From the sequence record PZ452596.1: a stretch of 64,000 nucleotides of DNA; one strand, written 5' to 3'. Of the stretch, positions 3,697-41,174 are shown in pieces (positions within the stretch are counted from its first letter, which is position 1; the number at the start of each line of letters is the position of its first letter). Position numbers and translations under genes: made by a program. Below the pieces are notes generated by a model that worked only from the letters and a program-made list of their open reading frames with translations, was not told the DNA's origin and did no database searches. This DNA is from a phage.

Positions 3697-4086
3697 TTAA
3701 CGATTAAAATCAGCCACAATTGTTTCCGCAACAATTTGAGCAGCAACAATTAGACGTTCATCTGCATTACCACAATAATCATCTTCAAGACGTTCACCAC
3801 ATGAAGTCATAATAAATTTAGCACCGGCGTTTAGAGATTCTGTAGTATGTTTGCGCATTAGTTCAATCCATTTATTACTTACTTCACGATCGATAGCTTC
3901 ATAATACGCATGACGAGCAGGTGCAGATTTAATTTTGTTCTGAATAACTTCCATTGCGTTATCAGAAAGAGACAAAACCCATGCTCGACGAATTTTATTT
4001 TGGTTTTGTGGATTTGATTCAGAACGCACGTGTTTTGGCTGAATATCTTTTACATCAACAGTATAATTCACAGTAATTTTAGTCAT
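3697..4086 (-). CDS. rpbA: RNA polymerase binding protein RpbA
   Basis: 129-aa [21 protein letters not shown]...; T4 order 45-rpbA. Confidence 0.75.
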
Positions 4087-4095
4087 AATACACCT

Positions 4096-4284
4096 TTAGT
4101 CATAATAATCAGTAACAGTCCAAGCTTCATTTCTATTGGACATTATTTTTGTATATTCTGCTTTAAATGCATTCCTAAGCATAGATTCAGTAACTATATG
4201 CTCTTCATTAGAAAAATTATTTCTCAGAATATATCGTTTTATTTCAGGAATAGTTAATAGATGTTGTCCAGTTGAATATTCCAT
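4096..4284 (-). CDS. Hypothetical protein (T4 45.2 position), 62 aa
   Basis: Track ORF with ATG; RBS GGAGGAAA upstream. Confidence 0.55.
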   Translation of the reverse strand: MEYSTGQHLLTIPEIKRYILRNNFSNEEHIVTESMLRNAFKAEYTKIMSNRNEAWTVTDYYD

Positions 4285-4289
4285 GTTTT

Positions 4290-4313
4290 TCCTCCACAGA
4301 GATTATACTCTAA
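4290..4313 (-). promoter_or_regulatory. Middle promoter upstream of the 45.2-like gene
   Basis: Minus strand ATGCTTTA - 11 nt - TATAAT, then RBS GGAGGAAAAACATG. Confidence 0.5.
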
Positions 4314-4339
4314 TAAATTAAAGCATAATCTCTTATAAA

Positions 4340-6022
4340 TTAAACCATTACAGTAAATCGACCAACTTTCTTCATTTGAAGATGCTGACCATATGCTTGC
4401 GGGTCATGGTCTCTATGTGAAATAACAAAAACATTAGTATTTTTTAAACTATCTAAAATAGTTGAAATAGCTTTTACACCTTCAACGTCGGTCGCTGAAT
4501 CAAAAACTTCATCAAGAATTAGTGTGTTTATTTTAACACCTGAAACTTTTTCAGCAATATCACGCCAAGTAAATAAAAGAGCAATATCAATTCGTGCTTT
4601 TTCACCTTGACTGAATGAAGCATAACTAAAATCTTCACGACCACGGGATTTAATTGTCTCATTAAATTCTTCATCTAATGTAAACACATAATCCGCTTCC
4701 ATTATTTTAAGATAATGGTTAATCTGCTTATTAAATAATGGAATGTACTTTTTAATAATAGCACCTTTAATACCAGAATCTTTGAGCATATCAGTCAAAA
4801 TTCCTCGGTGGTATTTTTCCATTACTAAATTAGTTTTTGTCTTAACAATTTTATCAAGTTCTTCTTGAAGCAATGCTATTTCATCAGCGTGGTCAATAAA
4901 CTCAGAAGATGCTTTTTCTATAGCCGCTTTAACTTTTTTAGCTTTATCTACCGTCGTGATTAGAGATTGCTTTTTATTGCGAATATCATTTGCCAACGAC
5001 TGTTGGGTTTTAATATTATCTCGGTATTCATCAACAAGAACTTTTAAATTATCACGATGCGTTGAAAGCTGTTCAAATGAATGTGTGCATTCAGAAACTT
5101 TATCTTTAATTTTAGAAACAACTTTATCACCGGAACTTAATTGTGACAAACAGGTTGGGCATAATCCACCTTCGTGATACATATTAATGACTTTATTATA
5201 CGAGTCAATTTTTGATTTAATTAAAACTGCTTCTTGACCGATTTTATTAAATGCATCAGTCGGGTCTTCATCCAAAACAATATTAACTAATCTTTCATTA
5301 GCTTCTTCTATTTCCGATTTTAGCGTTCTAGCTTCTTTTGCCAAATCATCATACATATTTTGAAGACGTGTAAGGTTGTCACCCGTTAATTTTTTCTGGC
5401 GTTCAACGTTATCATTATATATTTTAATTTGTTGGATAATACTATCTTTTTTAACATCAAGCACTTGGTTTTGTGAATTTAATTCACGTATTAGTGCTTT
5501 ATTAAGCTTATCCATTTCAGCTAATGTTCCTACCTCGAGCAGGTCTTCCACAAGCTTTCTTCGCGCAGGGGTCGACAAACCCATGAAAGGGGTATACCCT
5601 GCTGTACCAAGGACAACAATCTGCTTGAAACTGGCATATGACATTCCGATAAGCTGTTCAAATTCTGCTTGGAAATCTTTACTGCTGGCAGATTCATTAA
5701 GACGTGTACCGTTAACGGTGATTTCGAAAACGTTCGGTTTTTGTCCTCTTTTGATATAGTACTTTTTCTCATCATATTCCATCCACAGTTCAACTAAAAG
5801 TTCTTTCTTATTTGTGCTGTTTATTAATTGGCCTTTCTTTACGTCACGAAATGGTTTGCCAAAAAGCCCAAATGTGATGGCTTCTAACATAGTAGACTTA
5901 CCACCGCCATTTCGGCCAGTAATAAGAGTTTTTTGAACCTTATCTAATTGAATGTCAATAGGATTTCCACCTACTGACATTATATTTTGATACCTAACTC
6001 GGTTTAGTTTAAAATTCTTCAC
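4340..6022 (-). CDS. 46: Recombination endonuclease subunit gp46 (SbcC/Rad50-like ATPase)
   Basis: 560-aa ORF; Walker A GRNGGGKST; apparent GTG start. Confidence 0.9.
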   Translation of the reverse strand: MKNFKLNRVRYQNIMSVGGNPIDIQLDKVQKTLITGRNGGGKSTMLEAITFGLFGKPFRDVKKGQLINSTNKKELLVELWMEYDEKKYYIKRGQKPNVFEITVNGTRLNESASSKDFQAEFEQLIGMSYASFKQIVVLGTAGYTPFMGLSTPARRKLVEDLLEVGTLAEMDKLNKALIRELNSQNQVLDVKKDSIIQQIKIYNDNVERQKKLTGDNLTRLQNMYDDLAKEARTLKSEIEEANERLVNIVLDEDPTDAFNKIGQEAVLIKSKIDSYNKVINMYHEGGLCPTCLSQLSSGDKVVSKIKDKVSECTHSFEQLSTHRDNLKVLVDEYRDNIKTQQSLANDIRNKKQSLITTVDKAKKVKAAIEKASSEFIDHADEIALLQEELDKIVKTKTNLVMEKYHRGILTDMLKDSGIKGAIIKKYIPLFNKQINHYLKIMEADYVFTLDEEFNETIKSRGREDFSYASFSQGEKARIDIALLFTWRDIAEKVSGVKINTLILDEVFDSATDVEGVKAISTILDSLKNTNVFVISHRDHDPQAYGQHLQMKKVGRFTVMV

Positions 6023-10922: not shown

Positions 10923-11249
10923 TTATACCTTAGTAATTTTCAGGTCTGCAAATTTTTTCTTGCGTTGATTTTTCATGCGACGAATAGTTTTATCGGAAAT
11001 TTCATGCTTTTGATAAGCTTTAGATTCTACACCAAAAGCTTTAACATCAAATTCTGACAAGATATATTGAACTAACAATTCACGGATAGTATTACGTCCA
11101 ATCTTCTGTTCATTCTGTTTCATCGTCTGATGAAGCTCTTTTTCCCATTTATCCAAAATTTGAGGAGTTACAATATCGCCTTTTTCTAGCAAAGAAACTA
11201 CTTTATCATATGCGAAATTATTGATGGCGTTTTTAATTTGAATAGTCAT
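10923..11249 (-). CDS. Hypothetical protein, 108 aa
   Basis: Track ORF. Confidence 0.5.
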   Translation of the reverse strand: MTIQIKNAINNFAYDKVVSLLEKGDIVTPQILDKWEKELHQTMKQNEQKIGRNTIRELLVQYILSEFDVKAFGVESKAYQKHEISDKTIRRMKNQRKKKFADLKITKV

Positions 11250-11270
11250 ACATTATCCTCAATTACGTTA

Positions 11271-11304
11271 AAATTTTATTATCCAAAAAAGGGCCGAAGC
11301 CCTT
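11271..11304 (-). terminator. Rho-independent terminator (GGGC-UUCG-GCCC hairpin plus UUUUUGG)
   Basis: Hairpin overlapping the stop of ORF 11303..11503, followed by a T-run on the transcribed strand. Confidence 0.45.
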
Positions 11305-11503
11305 AGCTAAACTTTTTGGCACCCTTCCAGCCTTCATACATCATTGCGACTGACAATGACAAAGCTCCTTCACATGCTGCATACTTATTATTCCAGAACC
11401 AATTTAGAAAAACTTCATCCTCAATACCATTGTGTTTCATGTTCTGGAAAAATTTGGCGCGTTCTTCACGAAGCTTTTGCGATAACATAGATTCAGGATT
11501 CAT
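11303..11503 (-). CDS. Hypothetical protein, 66 aa
   Basis: Track ORF. Confidence 0.5.
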   Translation of the reverse strand: MNPESMLSQKLREERAKFFQNMKHNGIEDEVFLNWFWNNKYAACEGALSLSVAMMYEGWKGAKKFS

Positions 11504-23246: not shown

Positions 23247-24215
23247 TTATTTCAGAAGAGTAACCTCAGCGATTTCTTCCCAACCGTTTTTGTCGGTCAT
23301 AATAAAGTCAGCAAGATAAAGAGCAGTACGCAGTGAAACATTGCGTAAACGATTAACATTGACTTTCATCCATGATAATGCTTTATAAGTTTCTTCATCA
23401 GAAAGACCGCGCTTTTGCATCATGTCAGTTGAAAGAATAACATCTTCAACCCTGACCATAATTTCTTCATTAGTGTGAACACCCAAATCCAAATAAACCG
23501 AGCGGGACACTAATGCTTGTAAATGTGGAGCAAGTTTAGTACCACGGTCTAATTCGCGGTCAATGTCAACGTTTGTGATAAAAACAATCGTTCCTTTAAA
23601 TTCAAACTCACGCTCAATGCCTTTTTCTTCTAAGTAAGAAGATGCAGTGCTCCAGCAGACTTTACGGGTCTCTCCAGTGTCCAGAGCAGCTTTCAGAAGA
23701 TTAAGAATGTCCATATCAGAGAAAACATCCACATCGTCAATCAAAAGGACAGAATTCTCTTCACGATTATTCCAAAGCTGCTCATAAAGACCAATACCAG
23801 AGATTTTACCATTAATACTTTTATATTCAATGTATCCAACATCATTTGCTTTATTTAAAGCTTTATCTAAAGAATATGTTTTACCTATACCTGCCGCACC
23901 AGAGATAATTAATGAACGAATGTTTCCGTTAATAATACCATTCGTCATCATTCCCATAACATTAAATCTTTTATTAATGCGGGTTTTCATATCTTCATAT
24001 GATTCTTTAACTTCTTCAACTTTTACACCATCATATGAAATGTCTGATTTGTAAACCCAAACACCGCGACGTTTACCGTCAATTTCAACAAAAACTTTAC
24101 CATCTCCTTGTGCATCTACCGGAGCATTATCCGGGAACCATTCGCCTAAGAGCTCAAAAGTTCCAGAGATTTCTTTACCGAAGTAGATACCCTTATTGAT
24201 AGTTACAGTTTTCAT
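23247..24215 (-). CDS. P-loop NTPase (AAA-like), 322 aa
   Basis: Walker A GAAGIGKT, Walker B LLIDDVD; track ORF trimmed to MKTVTINKG because the early promoter overlaps the longer ORF. Confidence 0.6.
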   Translation of the reverse strand: MKTVTINKGIYFGKEISGTFELLGEWFPDNAPVDAQGDGKVFVEIDGKRRGVWVYKSDISYDGVKVEEVKESYEDMKTRINKRFNVMGMMTNGIINGNIRSLIISGAAGIGKTYSLDKALNKANDVGYIEYKSINGKISGIGLYEQLWNNREENSVLLIDDVDVFSDMDILNLLKAALDTGETRKVCWSTASSYLEEKGIEREFEFKGTIVFITNVDIDRELDRGTKLAPHLQALVSRSVYLDLGVHTNEEIMVRVEDVILSTDMMQKRGLSDEETYKALSWMKVNVNRLRNVSLRTALYLADFIMTDKNGWEEIAEVTLLK

Positions 24216-24252
24216 TTTATTCTCCAAATCTGTATCAGTAGTTGATAGTTGT

Positions 24253-24282
24253 ATAGTACCATAAAGCTTTATGCTTGTAAAC
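24253..24282 (-). promoter_or_regulatory. T4-type early promoter with conserved leader module
   Basis: GTTTACA - 17 nt - TACTAT, then ACAACTATCAACTACTGA, RBS GGAGA, ATG. Confidence 0.5.
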
Positions 24283-24300
24283 AACTTTGTGAAAAATTTT

Positions 24301-24331
24301 TGAAATAAAAAAGGGAGCCCGAAGGCTCCCT
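24301..24331 (-). terminator. Rho-independent terminator after the nucleotidyltransferase gene
   Basis: AGGGAGCC-UUCG-GGCUCCCU hairpin followed by UUUUUAUUU. Confidence 0.55.
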
Positions 24332-24332
24332 A

Positions 24333-25346
24333 TCATTTATAATAACTTCGATGGTTTTCAAGATAGACCTTCTCAAGGAAGTCATCCCAGAAACTCATGT
24401 CTACTTTTTGCTGCATACCGTTCTTAGAAGCTTCAGTAGATGCTGCTTCTACTTGATCGACCACATCTTCCAAAAACTCTTGAACTGTTTTAAATGGATG
24501 CTTACCCAACTTCACGTCGAGAATAAATGGAGCGTCTTGAAGTGGATAAACCAAGTCGCCAGTTTTGTAAATTTCCAATAGTTGAAGTCCACCACGACAG
24601 GCATGGCTCAGAGCTTTCCAGTCAATGCCTTCGTTGGCTTCGGCCTTACGAGCGCGTTCACCATATTCAGCATCTAATTTGTTCAGTGACTGCTTAAGCT
24701 CAATAAGAGAAAGAGTTGTCTGATATTTACGACCCAACACAGTGTAGAACGTTTGTGGGCCTGTTTTCTCATGATTATGGAACACCCATTCACAGAATTC
24801 GTTTTCTGGAAGACGATGCTTAATATCTTCAACTTTAGTGCGACGCTGCTTAATAGAACCATCTTCTTGGTAATCAACCCATTGCTCAGGGATTTGATTA
24901 ACTACTTTCAATACATCGCGTAATGCAGCCAAACGAGAACCCTTGACACCGTATTTAGAAGCTTGCTTGCGAACATATCCTAAATAGGATTTCATGTTAG
25001 TCGTATAAAAACGAGAACGGTTGTCTTGAATAAACTTCCACACATCAGGCAAATCAGATTTAACCACTAGTTCAGGTGGAGTGTGAAGCATATCCAATGC
25101 TACAGTTTCACCATCTGCTGCTAATTTAAAGAAATATTTAAGACTGTATAGTTCATGGTCAATATCATCTTTAGTGTTTTTAGATGATGTGTTGTTAGTG
25201 TTTTTACTCATATGCTCTTTAACATTTCCGATAAGAATATCGCGAGCAGGAGGAACAAAAATTTCTTTAAAATCTACATCAGATTCTGGGGTAGAAGTTC
25301 CATAAAGATGACTACCAAAATAGCTTTTCATTACTGTTTTCATCAT
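24333..25346 (-). CDS. Pol-beta superfamily nucleotidyltransferase-like protein, 337 aa
   Basis: N-terminal FGSHLYGTSTPESDVDF fits hG[GS]-x9-13-DhDh; large helical C-terminal region. Confidence 0.55.
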   Translation of the reverse strand: MMKTVMKSYFGSHLYGTSTPESDVDFKEIFVPPARDILIGNVKEHMSKNTNNTSSKNTKDDIDHELYSLKYFFKLAADGETVALDMLHTPPELVVKSDLPDVWKFIQDNRSRFYTTNMKSYLGYVRKQASKYGVKGSRLAALRDVLKVVNQIPEQWVDYQEDGSIKQRRTKVEDIKHRLPENEFCEWVFHNHEKTGPQTFYTVLGRKYQTTLSLIELKQSLNKLDAEYGERARKAEANEGIDWKALSHACRGGLQLLEIYKTGDLVYPLQDAPFILDVKLGKHPFKTVQEFLEDVVDQVEAASTEASKNGMQQKVDMSFWDDFLEKVYLENHRSYYK

Positions 25347-25804
25347 TCAGCCTTATATTCAATAACAGGACACACTTTAGCTTTACGAGCCTTTAAAAAT
25401 TCAACGATAATCGATTTCTTGGGTTGAATAGGAGGTAAACCTTTATACGCTCTATCAATATTTTCTACGTGTAAAGCATAATCCTTTTTCCATTTATAAT
25501 CTTTATATTTTTCACGCAAATGTGCAGGAATAACAAATGAACCGATAATAAGTAAAACAACCAAAAGCGCAAGTATAAATGCCGATGGAAGAAGAGTCCA
25601 TAAACTACCGAAAATAAGCCAACGTTGTAGGCTTTCTGCACAAATAATTGTTAGCCCTACGAGTATAGTACATCCAAAAATAGAAACGAAAAATGTAGGA
25701 ATGGCAATAGACCAAAAATATGCGCATAGTGTCTTAGGTCGTTGCCATTCATCGTTAAACAATTTGAATAATTTATAATGCCAAGAGTTTTCATTAATAA
25801 TCAT
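25343..25804 (-). CDS. Integral membrane protein, 153 aa
   Basis: Track ORF with several hydrophobic helices; 4-nt overlap with downstream gene. Confidence 0.55.
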   Translation of the reverse strand: MIINENSWHYKLFKLFNDEWQRPKTLCAYFWSIAIPTFFVSIFGCTILVGLTIICAESLQRWLIFGSLWTLLPSAFILALLVVLLIIGSFVIPAHLREKYKDYKWKKDYALHVENIDRAYKGLPPIQPKKSIIVEFLKARKAKVCPVIEYKAE

Positions 25805-25806
25805 AA

Positions 25807-26328
25807 TTATCCTTTCATTGAAGGCGTAACAGTTGTTAAATACTTAATCATAGCTTCAGCTTCTGATTTTGATAATGAAATTTCTCCATTGTTTTGACGA
25901 ATAGAAATAAAATCCGGATGACGGTCACCACCAGCTTTTAAAACACACATATAAGTATCAACTTCGCCTTCAATATTTGAAATGATTGAAGCAGTTCCAC
26001 ATGAATGTGGTTTTTGATAAATCAATACAGCTTTTCTTCCGCCATTTGACTGCTCATAGGCTTTTAATACATCAAGCAAATCAGTTCTTTTATCAATAGC
26101 TAAAATGTTATTTTCATCTTCAATGTTAAATCCTTCGGATACTTCATAAAGTGTCACCCATAAATCGCCAATATCAATAACAGCATTTACGTTTCCACGG
26201 CTTTCAAGAGCATGACAAATTTTCTTGATTTCGTCATAACTCATTTTAATAATATCATCTCCTTGAATAAGAAAGATGTCATTTTTAAATTCAACACGAA
26301 TTAAACCACTTCCACTTGAAATAAACAT
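25807..26328 (-). CDS. Hypothetical protein, 173 aa (paralog of 26335..26877)
   Basis: C-terminus AEAMIKYLTTVTPSMKG resembles neighbour's AIALKTYLDSVIPTMISK. Confidence 0.55.
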   Translation of the reverse strand: MFISSGSGLIRVEFKNDIFLIQGDDIIKMSYDEIKKICHALESRGNVNAVIDIGDLWVTLYEVSEGFNIEDENNILAIDKRTDLLDVLKAYEQSNGGRKAVLIYQKPHSCGTASIISNIEGEVDTYMCVLKAGGDRHPDFISIRQNNGEISLSKSEAEAMIKYLTTVTPSMKG

Positions 26329-26334
26329 ATTTCC

Positions 26335-26877
26335 TCACTTTGAAATCATAGTTGGAATGACAGAATCAAGATAAGTCTTTAGCGCAATAGCTTCGTCTTT
26401 GGTAAATGTGACAATATGCGCTCGAGAATCATCAATTTGGCGAACAAGTACGACATCGCCATCTTCATAAGAAGTCTTGACATCCAAAGTCGTAGTATAA
26501 TTTGCAGCTACTGGATTAATAATGTTAGCGCCGCGGTCTTTAGCCCATTGAAGTTTAGCCTTTTCGGATGTTTCGACTGTTTCAGATTCCAAGAATTCTT
26601 TCACCTTGACAACGAATGTTGCCCAATTGTTGATAGAAAGACACATAAATTCAGTTTCAATATTACCGCCGTAAAGGCCACGATAAAAACGAACTTGGAG
26701 GTCGTCTGTAATATTAGTTACACCGGTAACTCCTGAGGGAGCATAAGATAAAATCGCAGCCAGTTCCATAGGAAGAATAGTAATACTATCGTCTTCCTGC
26801 GTCAGAACGTATACATTACCACGTTTTTCGATAACCAGGTCACCGAACAAATCAGTTGTTTCAATTACAGCTTTCAT
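26335..26877 (-). CDS. Hypothetical protein, 180 aa (paralog of 25807..26328)
   Basis: Track ORF (TTG start) trimmed to ATG MKAVIETTDLF. Confidence 0.55.
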   Translation of the reverse strand: MKAVIETTDLFGDLVIEKRGNVYVLTQEDDSITILPMELAAILSYAPSGVTGVTNITDDLQVRFYRGLYGGNIETEFMCLSINNWATFVVKVKEFLESETVETSEKAKLQWAKDRGANIINPVAANYTTTLDVKTSYEDGDVVLVRQIDDSRAHIVTFTKDEAIALKTYLDSVIPTMISK

Positions 26878-26878
26878 A

Positions 26879-27064
26879 TTATTTACCAATTAAAGTTTCA
26901 ATATAAGAATCAAGATTTACTTTAGCTTCTTCCATAAGAGTTTTGTATTTAATCTTGTTAGCATGTCCGGAGAAAGCTGATTCATCAATAACTGTTGCTG
27001 TATGAACAGCTTTGCTATATGTTTCAATTAATTCTCTTAATTTAAAAGCCTGCTCACTTGTCAT
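26879..27064 (-). CDS. Small helical protein family member, 61 aa (MTSEQAFKLRELIETYSKAVH...)
   Basis: Track ORF 26879..27067 (GTG) with ATG one codon in; shares the M-x-S/T-x-EQ start and DLxxYxE end with five other small ORFs. Confidence 0.5.
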   Translation of the reverse strand: MTSEQAFKLRELIETYSKAVHTATVIDESAFSGHANKIKYKTLMEEAKVNLDSYIETLIGK

Positions 27065-27168
27065 CACATACTCCTCTGAATCATATCAATAATGTTGTTC
27101 ACCAGATTATAAGTAAACATTGGGTAATTATATTGAATCATCACATACACAACAAACAAAACTTTCAT
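27064..27168 (-). CDS. Small hydrophobic peptide ORF, 34 aa
   Basis: Hand-translated MKVLFVVYVMIQYNYPMFTYNLVNNIIDMIQRSM; RBS AAGGAGAAGAGA just downstream of the early promoter. Confidence 0.3.
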   Translation of the reverse strand: MKVLFVVYVMIQYNYPMFTYNLVNNIIDMIQRSM

Positions 27169-27196
27169 TCTCTTCTCCTTGGCAGCTGACAAGATT

Positions 27197-27225
27197 ACTA
27201 TACCATAACCTTGCCAACTTGTAAA
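27197..27225 (-). promoter_or_regulatory. T4-type early promoter (GTTTACA - 17 nt - TATAGT)
   Basis: Seen on the minus strand; heads the operon ending at the 24301-24331 terminator. Confidence 0.5.
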
Positions 27226-27228
27226 CCA

Positions 27229-27402
27229 TTAAATGATGTTTTCAATAAAATTCTGAAGCTTTGTGTGAGCATCAACCATGATTTTCAATTCTTCTTTAGC
27301 GAAAGCTGTACCTCTTTCCCGAGAAGAACACTCATAGTCAGAAACTGCATTAGCATATTCTTCAATTAGTTTCATTAAAAACATCTGCTTTTCAGTTTTC
27401 AT
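27229..27402 (-). CDS. Small helical protein family member, 57 aa (MKTEKQMFLMKLIEEYANAV...)
   Basis: Hand-translated; ATGA overlap with the upstream stop. Confidence 0.4.
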   Translation of the reverse strand: MKTEKQMFLMKLIEEYANAVSDYECSSRERGTAFAKEELKIMVDAHTKLQNFIENII

Positions 27403-27586
27403 TATTCCACCTAATCATTTCAAGATATTGAACTAACTTAGCTTTAGATTTATCCAAATCCTTTTTAGCTGCTTCTATACCGTCGTATGAATATCCTTCA
27501 CAATGCTCAACTGCTAATTGATATGAATCTATTTCAACATCACGTGCTAATTTAATGATTTTTTCAAACTGTTCACATGTTAGCAT
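27392..27586 (-). CDS. Small helical protein family member, 64 aa
   Basis: Track ORF MLTCEQFEKIIKLARDV... Confidence 0.5.
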   Translation of the reverse strand: MLTCEQFEKIIKLARDVEIDSYQLAVEHCEGYSYDGIEAAKKDLDKSKAKLVQYLEMIRWNNEN

Positions 27587-27588
27587 AC

Positions 27589-27792
27589 TTAAACTCTCGT
27601 ATTATGATCGATAATTTCATCAAGAAACATATCTAACGCTTCTATAGCATTATCAACTTTAGCTTCAAGTTCATCAATACCTTTATTTGCAATGCCTGAC
27701 GAAAACCAAGCAAAGTCACTAAGTTCCTCGTCTGCTTTACGAATTAAAGCTACTAATTCCTTAATTTTATCCGCTTGTTCGATACTAATCAT
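27589..27792 (-). CDS. Small helical protein family member, 67 aa
   Basis: Track ORF trimmed to [17 protein letters not shown]; TAATG coupling. Confidence 0.5.
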   Translation of the reverse strand: MISIEQADKIKELVALIRKADEELSDFAWFSSGIANKGIDELEAKVDNAIEALDMFLDEIIDHNTRV

Positions 27793-27977
27793 TATTCCAC
27801 CACATATGAAAGAGAGAATATTGCACACGCCATGTGAGTTGCAACTTCATCACACATATTATAACGTTTCTTAAGAAGTTCTACAAGTTCTTCACTAGTA
27901 ACTTCATCCATGTCGACGAAAAAATCACCATTAATGATGACGTAAATATTTCCTTCTTGATTGAGTGCTTCAATTTT
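27792..27977 (-). CDS. Hypothetical protein, 61 aa
   Basis: Track ORF trimmed to [10 protein letters not shown] (RBS GAGGAG downstream of early promoter). Confidence 0.5.
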
Positions 27978-40346: not shown

Positions 40347-40422
40347 TGGTCGAGGCAGTAGGGATCGAACCTACGACCCAGGACTTAGAAGGTCCTTGCT
40401 CTTCCTTCTGAGCTATGCCTCG
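40347..40422 (-). tRNA. tRNA-Arg (anticodon UCU), CCA encoded
   Basis: Hand-folded cloverleaf: 7-bp acceptor, T-loop UUCGAUC, anticodon loop CUUCUAA. Confidence 0.8.
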
Positions 40423-40426
40423 GATT

Positions 40427-40501
40427 TGGCGGACGTGATAGGATTCGAACCTATAACCAATCGCTTAACAGGCGATCGCTCTGCCATTGAGCTACACATC
40501 C
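40427..40501 (-). tRNA. tRNA-Asn (anticodon GUU), CCA encoded
   Basis: Hand-folded cloverleaf; anticodon loop CUGUUAA; T-loop UUCGAAU. Confidence 0.75.
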
Positions 40502-40505
40502 AAAT

Positions 40506-40592
40506 TGGTGGGGAGTGATGGAGTCGAACCACCCGAGTCGCAATGACAATGGATTTACAGTCCACACCGCTACCTCTACGGGATAACTCCCC
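40506..40592 (-). tRNA. tRNA-Tyr (anticodon GUA), long variable arm, CCA encoded
   Basis: Hand-folded; anticodon loop CUGUAAA; 15-nt variable arm; T-loop UUCGACU. Confidence 0.75.
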
Positions 40593-40601
40593 TAATTAAT
40601 T

Positions 40602-40676
40602 TGGTGGCCCTGGGTGGAATTGAACCACCATCTGGCGATTATGAGTCGCTTGCTTGAACCTTCCAGCTACAGGGCC
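40602..40676 (-). tRNA. tRNA with CAU anticodon (Ile2/AUA-reading type as in T4, or elongator Met)
   Basis: Hand-folded; anticodon loop CUCAUAA; anticodon stem lacks initiator-type GGG/CCC pairs. Confidence 0.7.
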
Positions 40677-40677
40677 T

Positions 40678-40753
40678 TGGTGCTGATTGACGGAATCGAA
40701 CCGCCGACCTTCTCATTACAAGTGAGTTGCTCTACCTACTGAGCTAAATCAGC
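40678..40753 (-). tRNA. tRNA-Thr (anticodon UGU), CCA encoded
   Basis: Hand-folded; anticodon loop CUUGUAA. Confidence 0.8.
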
Positions 40754-40758
40754 AAAAC

Positions 40759-40848
40759 TGGCGGAGGCGATAGGATTTGAACCTATGAGTCGCCGGAGCG
40801 ACTGCCGGTTTTCAAGACCGGTGCATTAAACCACTCTGCCACGCCTCC
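40759..40848 (-). tRNA. tRNA-Ser (anticodon UGA), long variable arm, CCA encoded
   Basis: Hand-folded; anticodon loop CUUGAAA; 18-nt variable arm. Confidence 0.8.
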
Positions 40849-40850
40849 AG

Positions 40851-40924
40851 TCTCCATACAAGGATTTGAACCTTGGACCTCCTGATCCCAAATCAGGCGC
40901 TCTACCAAACTGAGCTACACGGAG
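40851..40924 (-). tRNA. tRNA-Pro (anticodon UGG), CCA not encoded
   Basis: Hand-folded; anticodon loop UUUGGGA. Confidence 0.75.
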
Positions 40925-40934
40925 TAAATTAAAT

Positions 40935-41008
<74 letters not shown>

Positions 41009-41013
41009 AAATT

Positions 41014-41100
41014 TGGTGCGAGAAGTGGGACTCGAACCCACAAGGAAATCATTCCGCAGCATTTTAAGTGCTGTGCCTTTACCAATTTGACCATTCTCGC
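41014..41100 (-). tRNA. tRNA-Leu (anticodon UAA), long variable arm, CCA encoded
   Basis: Hand-folded; anticodon loop CUUAAAA. Confidence 0.8.
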
Positions 41101-41101
41101 G

Positions 41102-41174
41102 CTGGGAATAAAGGACTCGAACCTTTGCATCTAGCAGTCAAAGTGCTATGCCTTACCAACTTGGCTAATTCCCA
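41102..41174 (-). tRNA. tRNA-Gln (anticodon UUG), CCA not encoded
   Basis: Hand-folded; anticodon loop CUUUGAC. Confidence 0.75.

Follow-up and report, generated by a model that had tools for sequence, protein, structure and literature searches.

RlaP proteins were named for their association with RNA ligases and were predicted to restore nucleotides lost from RNA ends (Burroughs & Aravind 2016, cited in PMC12776372 and PMC7824862). The RlaPs of Pseudomonas fluorescens and P. aeruginosa have been characterised biochemically (Carruthers, Fatma, Huang, bioRxiv December 2025; PMC12776372): they label RNA only, leaving DNA and protein (E. coli proteins) unlabelled, and they need a 3′-OH, to which one or two nucleoside monophosphates (NMPs) are added with a preference for Mn2+ and little specificity for the nucleoside triphosphate (NTP). 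According to the same preprint, both enzymes favour, in a mimic of cleaved tRNA, the 3′ end at the nick and partly rescue the aminoacylation of a tRNA that is short of one anticodon-loop nucleotide. In jumbo phages, the distribution of RlaPs mirrors that of RNA ligases (PMC7824862). Here, we describe a nucleotidyltransferase (NTase) of this family, NrdC.11, encoded on the minus strand of a 64,000-nucleotide stretch of phage DNA (record PZ452596.1; hereafter, the window), within a region (23247-27225) that matches Enterobacteria phage RB27 (Tequatrovirus) at 100% identity and hundreds of T4-like phages at ~97%. The interpretation that we favour, if with reservations, is that NrdC.11 is an early-expressed RlaP NTase that adds NMPs to the 3′-OH of broken RNA for tRNA repair. 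What is established here is its family membership, the conservation of its catalytic residues, its fold, the arrangement of genes and regulatory elements, and the occurrence of neighbours of the RNA-repair type around distant homologs.

The 337-aa protein is 98.5% identical to T4 NrdC.11 over 337 aa, and RefSeq names it 'nucleotidyltransferase; nrdC.11' (from the second methionine, giving 336 instead of 337 aa) and the 322-aa product of the next gene 'nrdC.10'—in line with an earlier annotation of the window from its letters alone (the sequence-only reading), which had expected T4 homologs under nrdC.x names. NrdC.11 homologs were found in 1518 phage records, and a HMMER search returned 3444 representatives of 50%-identity clusters at E<=1e-3, 830 of them at E<=1e-30. 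PF10127 (RlaP) was the sole Pfam family above threshold (44.6 bits against a cutoff of 23; residues 7-135) and was likewise matched by all 60 of 60 diverse homologs, while PHROGs placed the protein in phrog_388 ('nucleotidyltransferase', E 6e-137). Of the NTase families against which the sequence-only reading had proposed a profile search, NTP_transf_2 scored below threshold, and the models for minimal nucleotidyltransferases (MNT), PolyA_pol/CCA enzymes and cGAS/DncV-like nucleotidyltransferases (CD-NTases) gave no membership; RlaP was found in their stead. The possibility that the protein would match a housekeeping enzyme, namely a CCA-adding enzyme or a poly(A) polymerase, was not borne out either, as no PolyA_pol, CCA-enzyme or tRNA nucleotidyltransferase model in Pfam, NCBIfam or PHROG matched NrdC.11.

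The same reading had been aware of no assigned function, which is outdated. Nolan et al. (2006; PMC1524935) reported a match of nrdC.11 with the nucleotidyltransferase domain COG3541 and of nrdC.10 with AAA ATPases, the prediction of RNA repair followed in 2016 and the biochemistry in 2025 (PMC12776372); this preprint places 'T4NrdC.11' in cluster 5 of the RlaP sequence similarity network (SSN), where it is described as of unknown function. Separately, many T4-like GenBank records label the nrdC.10 and nrdC.11 homologs 'thioredoxin'. We rejected this label, for neither protein has a thioredoxin family match, and it looks like name propagation from 'nrdC.x'.

To assess residue conservation, we used two alignments, one of 60 homologs at 35–54% identity to NrdC.11 and a second of 57 sequences. 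Eleven positions (G11, S12, D23, D25, N57, D63, Y132, R231, K244, H248, and R251) were invariant in both, and three more (D61, D85, and R138) were invariant in the 57-sequence set, with a conservation of 90% or more in the 60-sequence set. These include the hG[GS] motif (G11-S12) and the three catalytic aspartates (D23, D25, and D63) of Pol-beta-superfamily NTases, so that the superfamily assignment made earlier from a GS...D.D signature holds. An AlphaFold2 (AF2) model built from the 57-sequence alignment (mean pLDDT, the per-residue confidence measure, 89.2) has its alpha/beta NTase core at the N terminus; there, the GS loop follows beta1, beta2 starts with D23 and D25, and D63 stands where a later (third) strand begins. 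The core is followed by a beta-rich subdomain (~155-209) and a C-terminal helical bundle; the ~200-aa helical C-terminal region described before is thus helical in its bundle, but not throughout.

In structural comparison, the head of NrdC.11 has a fold of the kanamycin nucleotidyltransferase (KNTase)/minimal-NTase type. Hailong HalB was the top structural match, and HalB and KNTase were the closest solved structures; structures of poly(A) polymerase (PAP), Cid1 and terminal uridylyltransferase (TUT) were retrieved at a probability of <=0.14 only, and a cGAS/DncV/OAS-type fold was not the nearest structural relative. Sequence searches of the PDB, with NrdC.11 alone and with a 60-sequence profile, detected no relationship to HalB or KNTase and no RlaP structure, the PfRlaP crystal structure apparently lying outside the copy searched.

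Since the Pfam match covered only the N-terminal part of the protein, we compared the profile of NrdC.11 with homologs from bacterial plasmids. A Bacillus pumilus protein of 252 aa, a full-length PF10127 member (profile positions 21-248 of 249), aligned by hhalign with residues 4-145 and 240-329 (probability 99.7%, E 9e-27), which shows that the NTase domain and the helical domain at the C-terminal end are both homologous to those of canonical RlaPs. Given that the 252-aa protein skips ~146-239, the NrdC.11 type carries a specific insertion of ~95 residues, which holds the beta subdomain (155-209) and the conserved P180, E183, Y201, V203, and G205. A 338-aa protein from a Deferribacter desulfuricans megaplasmid, again full-length PF10127, aligned end to end, insert included (hhalign probability 99.9%). 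With full-length PF10127 proteins aligning to both domains, and one of them across the insert, sequence comparison identifies NrdC.11 as a genuine RlaP that carries an insert specific to its clade. It shares with the Pseudomonas enzymes (PfRlaP and PaRlaP, encoded in RtcB-RtcA operons) the Pfam family, the layout of NTase and C-terminal helical domains, the aspartate triad, and the KNTxDDxD motif, but differs from them in its SSN cluster (5 versus 1a), in the insert at ~146-239 with its beta subdomain, and in having no adjoining RNA ligase.

An RNA-repair gene neighbourhood, not seen around nrdC.11 in RB27 or T4, emerged among some of its relatives in the form of RtcB, RNA ligases, and HD genes. 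We examined nine distinct metagenomic contexts, with homologs at 37–43% identity, and 78 IMG/VR loci, 22 of them at <=50% identity (L numbers are our locus handles). In four of the nine metagenomic contexts—L009 (HD gene at 10939-11445), L010/L011 (1913-2371 and 2479-2910, respectively), L012/L013 (2735-3244 in L012), and L018 (6909-7424)—a gene for an HD phosphohydrolase adjoins the NTase gene at its 3′ end or overlaps with it there; a fifth, L019, has an HD_4 gene 0.7 kb upstream. Within the 22 most distant IMG/VR loci, an HD gene was present at <=7 kb in nine and abutted the NTase gene in three (L093, L095, and L096), in each of which a small HD gene directly follows the NTase gene, just after 10940; the same 22 contained an RNA ligase in two cases and Pnk in two. 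Counted as distinct contigs, six have an HD phosphohydrolase gene as the immediate downstream neighbour of the NTase gene. RNA ligase genes were found at <=5 kb from the NTase in metagenomic L008 and L019 and, as a pair, in Sinorhizobium phage phiM19; extending the distance to 7 kb, five loci have one (the three just named, L084, and L094). As to the bacterial relatives, RtcB is encoded 2.6 kb upstream of the 338-aa Deferribacter homolog, on the same strand.

The HD neighbours belong to two families: four match phrog_2244 ('tRNA nucleotidyltransferase') at positions ~200-350, in our reading the HD region of this CCA-enzyme-type family, and two match phrog_990/HD_4. The HD-adjacent NTases are 43–66% identical among one another, arguing that the pairing is old, and a distant NTase with its HD gene resembles a split NTase-plus-HD pair for 3′-end repair. 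The obvious point of reference is the bacterial class II CCA-adding enzyme, a template-independent RNA 3′-end NTase with an NTase head and an HD domain, to which the distant NrdC.11-type genes come close by pairing with a separate protein that matches the phrog_2244 HD region. NrdC.11 itself departs from that enzyme in its lack of a PolyA_pol/CCA Pfam match, in its KNTase/minimal-NTase head, and in that the RB27 unit is devoid of an HD gene. As a side observation, a Curtobacterium plasmid (L102) encodes a canonical 252-aa RlaP (3956-4714) and then, from 4760, a ~1590-aa 'methyltransferase domain-containing protein', which may be another RNA-repair-type pairing.

We infer the enzymatic activity, RNA substrate, and anti-defence role of NrdC.11 by analogy with the assayed RlaPs. 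As a template-independent NTase made from an early promoter, it would employ D23, D25, D63, and two divalent metals (the family prefers Mn2+) to catalyse NMP addition, as the Pseudomonas enzymes do; its substrate would be the 3′-OH of broken RNA, above all of tRNA nicked in the anticodon loop, to which one or two NMPs would be joined. In the order proposed, Pnk (pseT) would clear the 2′,3′-cyclic phosphate or 3′-phosphate, NrdC.11 would refill the nucleotide excised by a host nuclease such as RloC, and Rnl1 (gene 63) would seal the break. RB27 encodes both Pnk (pseT) and Rnl1 (rnlA, gene 63). RloC excises the wobble nucleotide, a lesion proposed to defeat repair by phage Pnk and Rnl1 (PMC2610378).

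Several observations weigh against this tRNA-repair interpretation. The RlaPs for which RNA 3′-end addition was demonstrated are bacterial, from Pseudomonas, and NrdC.11 is only about 25–30% identical to canonical RlaPs, carries the ~95-residue insert, and belongs to another SSN cluster than the assayed enzymes, whose scant NTP specificity moreover leaves the faithful restoration of a specific nucleotide unexplained. As to gene order, in RB27 and T4, nrdC.11 is ~80 kb away from pseT and rnlA, and it sits among unrelated small genes and a membrane protein gene, in T4 also a homing endonuclease gene. No HD, RNA ligase, or Pnk neighbour was seen in three of the nine metagenomic contexts, nor in the majority of the distant viral loci examined. 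Finally, T4 with nrdC.11-mobD.3 deleted was viable on a laboratory host in a genome-reduction study (PMC9825161).

An NTase beside an enzyme able to clear 2′,3′-cyclic phosphates or 3′-phosphates is what a 'heal, then add' type of repair needs, and in T-even phages Pnk could supply the phosphate-clearing step. We put forward, as a speculative extension with the odds against it, that insert-bearing RlaPs would add the nucleotides in a phage 'heal-and-add' module for RNA 3′-end repair—in effect a split CCA-enzyme-like system—the other half of which, a separate HD phosphohydrolase in many phages or Pnk in the T-even ones, would do the healing. The membrane protein encoded upstream of nrdC.11, or NrdC.10 encoded downstream, may be accessory factors of such a module.

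The nrdC.11 gene closes an early transcription unit, which is followed by the separately promoted nrdC.10. From the promoter of the unit downstream, the features are:

27197..27225, minus strand: early promoter heading the mobD.2-to-nrdC.11 unit (10/12 sigma-70 match, extended TG)
27064..27168, minus strand: mobD.2 homolog, a 34-aa hydrophobic peptide (phrog_3515, E 2.8e-22; RefSeq note 'mobD.2')
26879..27067, minus strand: 62-aa DUF7438 protein (PF24219, E 1.1e-15)
26335..26877, minus strand: y05I-like paralog A, 180 aa (PF24449 and PF24448, that is, T4_y05I_N and T4_y05I_C)
25807..26328, minus strand: y05I-like paralog B, 173 aa (PF24449 and PF24448; phrog_1502)
25343..25804, minus strand: 153-aa integral membrane protein (phrog_944 'membrane protein', E 8e-50)
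24333..25346, minus strand: NrdC.11, 337 aa, Pol-beta-fold NTase of the RlaP family (PF10127; Pfam, alignments, AF2, hhalign)
24302..24331, minus strand: intrinsic terminator of the unit (8-bp stem with 6 G-C pairs, then the TTTTTTATTT T-run)
24253..24281, minus strand: early promoter driving nrdC.10, T4 'early promoter 54.4' (consensus scan; U76612 annotation)
23247..24215, minus strand: NrdC.10, 322-aa AAA+ ATPase (phrog_1250, E 1.6e-166)

According to the list of open reading frames (ORFs), every ORF of 23247-27225 is on the minus strand, and the coordinates that the sequence-only reading had given hold. That the unit is tightly packed, as also claimed there, follows from its gene junctions, at which neighbours overlap by up to 4 nt or stand no more than 6 nt apart, and which include an ATGA overlap between the stop codon of the membrane protein gene and the start codon of nrdC.11. 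The two promoters and the terminator named at the outset were recovered as well in a consensus scan, and all have annotated counterparts in T4 (U76612). The first promoter (27225-27197) has the −35 element GTTTACA and the −10 element TGGTATAGT, which are the signals annotated before mobD.2 in T4, two bases of the spacer being different. The terminator (24331-24302), directly after the nrdC.11 stop codon, is the same as in T4, and so is the second promoter (24281-24253; GTTTACA...TGGTACTAT), there termed 'early promoter 54.4'. As these elements were annotated in the 1990s, with identical hexamers upstream of mobD.2, the observation repeats a T4 annotation that is decades old. Promoter-like sites as a class were not enriched in the region (24 found versus 26 expected from shuffled sequence).

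While nrdC.11 holds the same place in T4, at the end of an early unit and with an identical terminator and downstream promoter, the genes upstream of it differ: T4 has mobD.1 and the homing endonuclease gene mobD, the latter where RB27 has the membrane protein, whereas RB27 has the DUF7438 gene, the two y05I paralogs, and the membrane protein gene. The suspected paralogy of the two proteins at 25807..26877 was confirmed (28% identity, E 1e-6; both domains in each). In 40 of the 78 viral loci, down to NTase identities of 51–54%, the NTase gene has a homolog of the membrane protein gene directly upstream. Scans with NCBIfam and PADLOC gave no useful match for any gene of the unit. The DUF7438 protein is one of four tandem paralogs of ~60 aa encoded within 1 kb (26879-27067, 27229-27402, 27392-27586, and 27589-27795); its RefSeq label, 'helicase loader', we regard as an annotation artefact, the apparent sole source of which is the label of phrog_4859. 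Elsewhere in the window, ten tRNA genes (Arg, Asn, Tyr, Met(CAT), Thr, Ser, Pro, Gly, Leu, and Gln) are clustered on the minus strand at 40347-41174.

Among the alternatives, the one that survives best, yet is still unlikely, makes NrdC.11 and NrdC.10 the two components of one machine, with the AAA+ protein delivering or remodelling the substrate of the NTase. The P-loop ATPase of the sequence-only reading is indeed well founded. Homologs of NrdC.10 were found in 1312 phage records. In 36 homologs, the Walker A (G106-A107-x-G109-x-G111-K112) and Walker B (D160-D161) residues are invariant, as are N215 (the sensor-1 Asn), R238, R291, and R296. The AF2 model (pLDDT 89.6) comprises, besides an AAA+ (ASCE) core and a lid, a beta domain at the N terminus (1-61) and helices at the C terminus, and Foldseek retrieved AAA modules of ORC/Cdc6, RFC, Hda, RuvB, ClpA, and dynein (probability 1.0, TM score ~0.4). 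Pfam AAA models stayed below their gathering thresholds on NrdC.10; the features of AAA+ proteins—Walker A and B, sensor-1, Arg finger, and an alpha/beta core with helical lid—are all present. Like ORC/Cdc6, RFC, Hda, and RuvB, NrdC.10 has the Walker motifs, the sensor-1 Asn, a conserved Arg, and a lid domain; unlike them it has an N-terminal beta domain of its own, and the TM score of ~0.4 is low. On these motifs and the modelled core, we classify it as a separately transcribed canonical AAA+ ATPase of the initiator/clamp-loader-like type.

What speaks for a joint machine is synteny: nrdC.10 lies <=2.3 kb downstream of the NTase gene and on the same strand in 37 of the 78 viral loci, including Acinetobacter phages whose NTases are 51–54% identical to NrdC.11. 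Against it, a terminator and a separate promoter stand between the two genes, three loci of close relatives (L028, L030, and L057) have kept NrdC.11 and lost NrdC.10, and no NrdC.10 was found near RB43-type or more distant NTases in the viral set, nor any AAA+ neighbour at the distant or bacterial RlaPs examined. Conversely, Vibrio phage K476 encodes a NrdC.10 homolog (L015, 3989-5002) with no NTase nearby, amid genes for a sliding clamp, clamp loader, regA, dUTPase, and helicase, a setting that hints at a role related to DNA replication. Independent loss and relocation, together with the intervening terminator and promoter, favour synteny over obligate partnership, and NrdC.10 is probably a syntenic neighbour of NrdC.11 instead of an obligate partner.

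It is unlikely, too, that NrdC.11 transfers NMPs to a protein or small molecule, as MNT or KNTase enzymes do, for instance to neutralise a host HEPN RNase toxin by AMPylation. The KNTase/minimal-NTase fold of the head is shared with such enzymes, but the NCBIfam MntA equivalog model scored 13.3 bits against a cutoff of 60, so that NrdC.11 falls outside this family, and the Pseudomonas RlaPs left E. coli proteins unlabelled (PMC12776372). The conserved basic residues R138, R231, K244, H248, and R251 of the C-terminal domain would fit the binding of nucleic acid or NTP, and the RNA ligase, RtcB, and HD neighbours of the relatives suggest RNA ends as the substrate.

A HalB-like activity—synthesis of short oligo(deoxy)nucleotides or tailing of DNA 3′ ends, for example as a decoy signal for a host sensor—would agree with the top structural match, yet HalB and KNTase have no detectable sequence relationship to NrdC.11, and their substrates differ from the one proposed for it, HalB oligomerising dATP and KNTase acting on aminoglycosides; we regard this activity as very improbable. 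Least credible of all is a cGAS/DncV-like CD-NTase that makes, mimics, or depletes signalling nucleotides against CBASS, Thoeris, or Pycsar-type immunity, the framing of the sequence-only reading, which we abandon: the generic hG[GS]...DxD Pol-beta signature is common to both, and nrdC.11 is an early, non-essential phage gene, but RlaP is the only Pfam family above threshold and PADLOC returned no defence or CD-NTase model at E<=0.1.

The membership of NrdC.11 in the RlaP family and its proposed role in RNA repair (PMC7824862; PMC12776372), as well as the T4 promoters and terminator, were already known. To this we add, modestly, the ~95-residue insert, the recurrent HD partner, a full-length bacterial homolog linked to RtcB, and the independent status of NrdC.10; because the candidate and the hypothesis were in the literature, this is mainly supporting context and not a new discovery. 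Should NrdC.11 restore excised nucleotides, it would be a third enzyme in the classic T4 Pnk/Rnl1 tRNA repair pathway and would answer a question posed since 2008, namely whether phages can reverse RloC-type lesions (PMC2610378). If 'heal-and-add' modules exist, phages could reverse lesions thought to be repair-proof, such as wobble excision by RloC and damage to tRNA 3′ ends.

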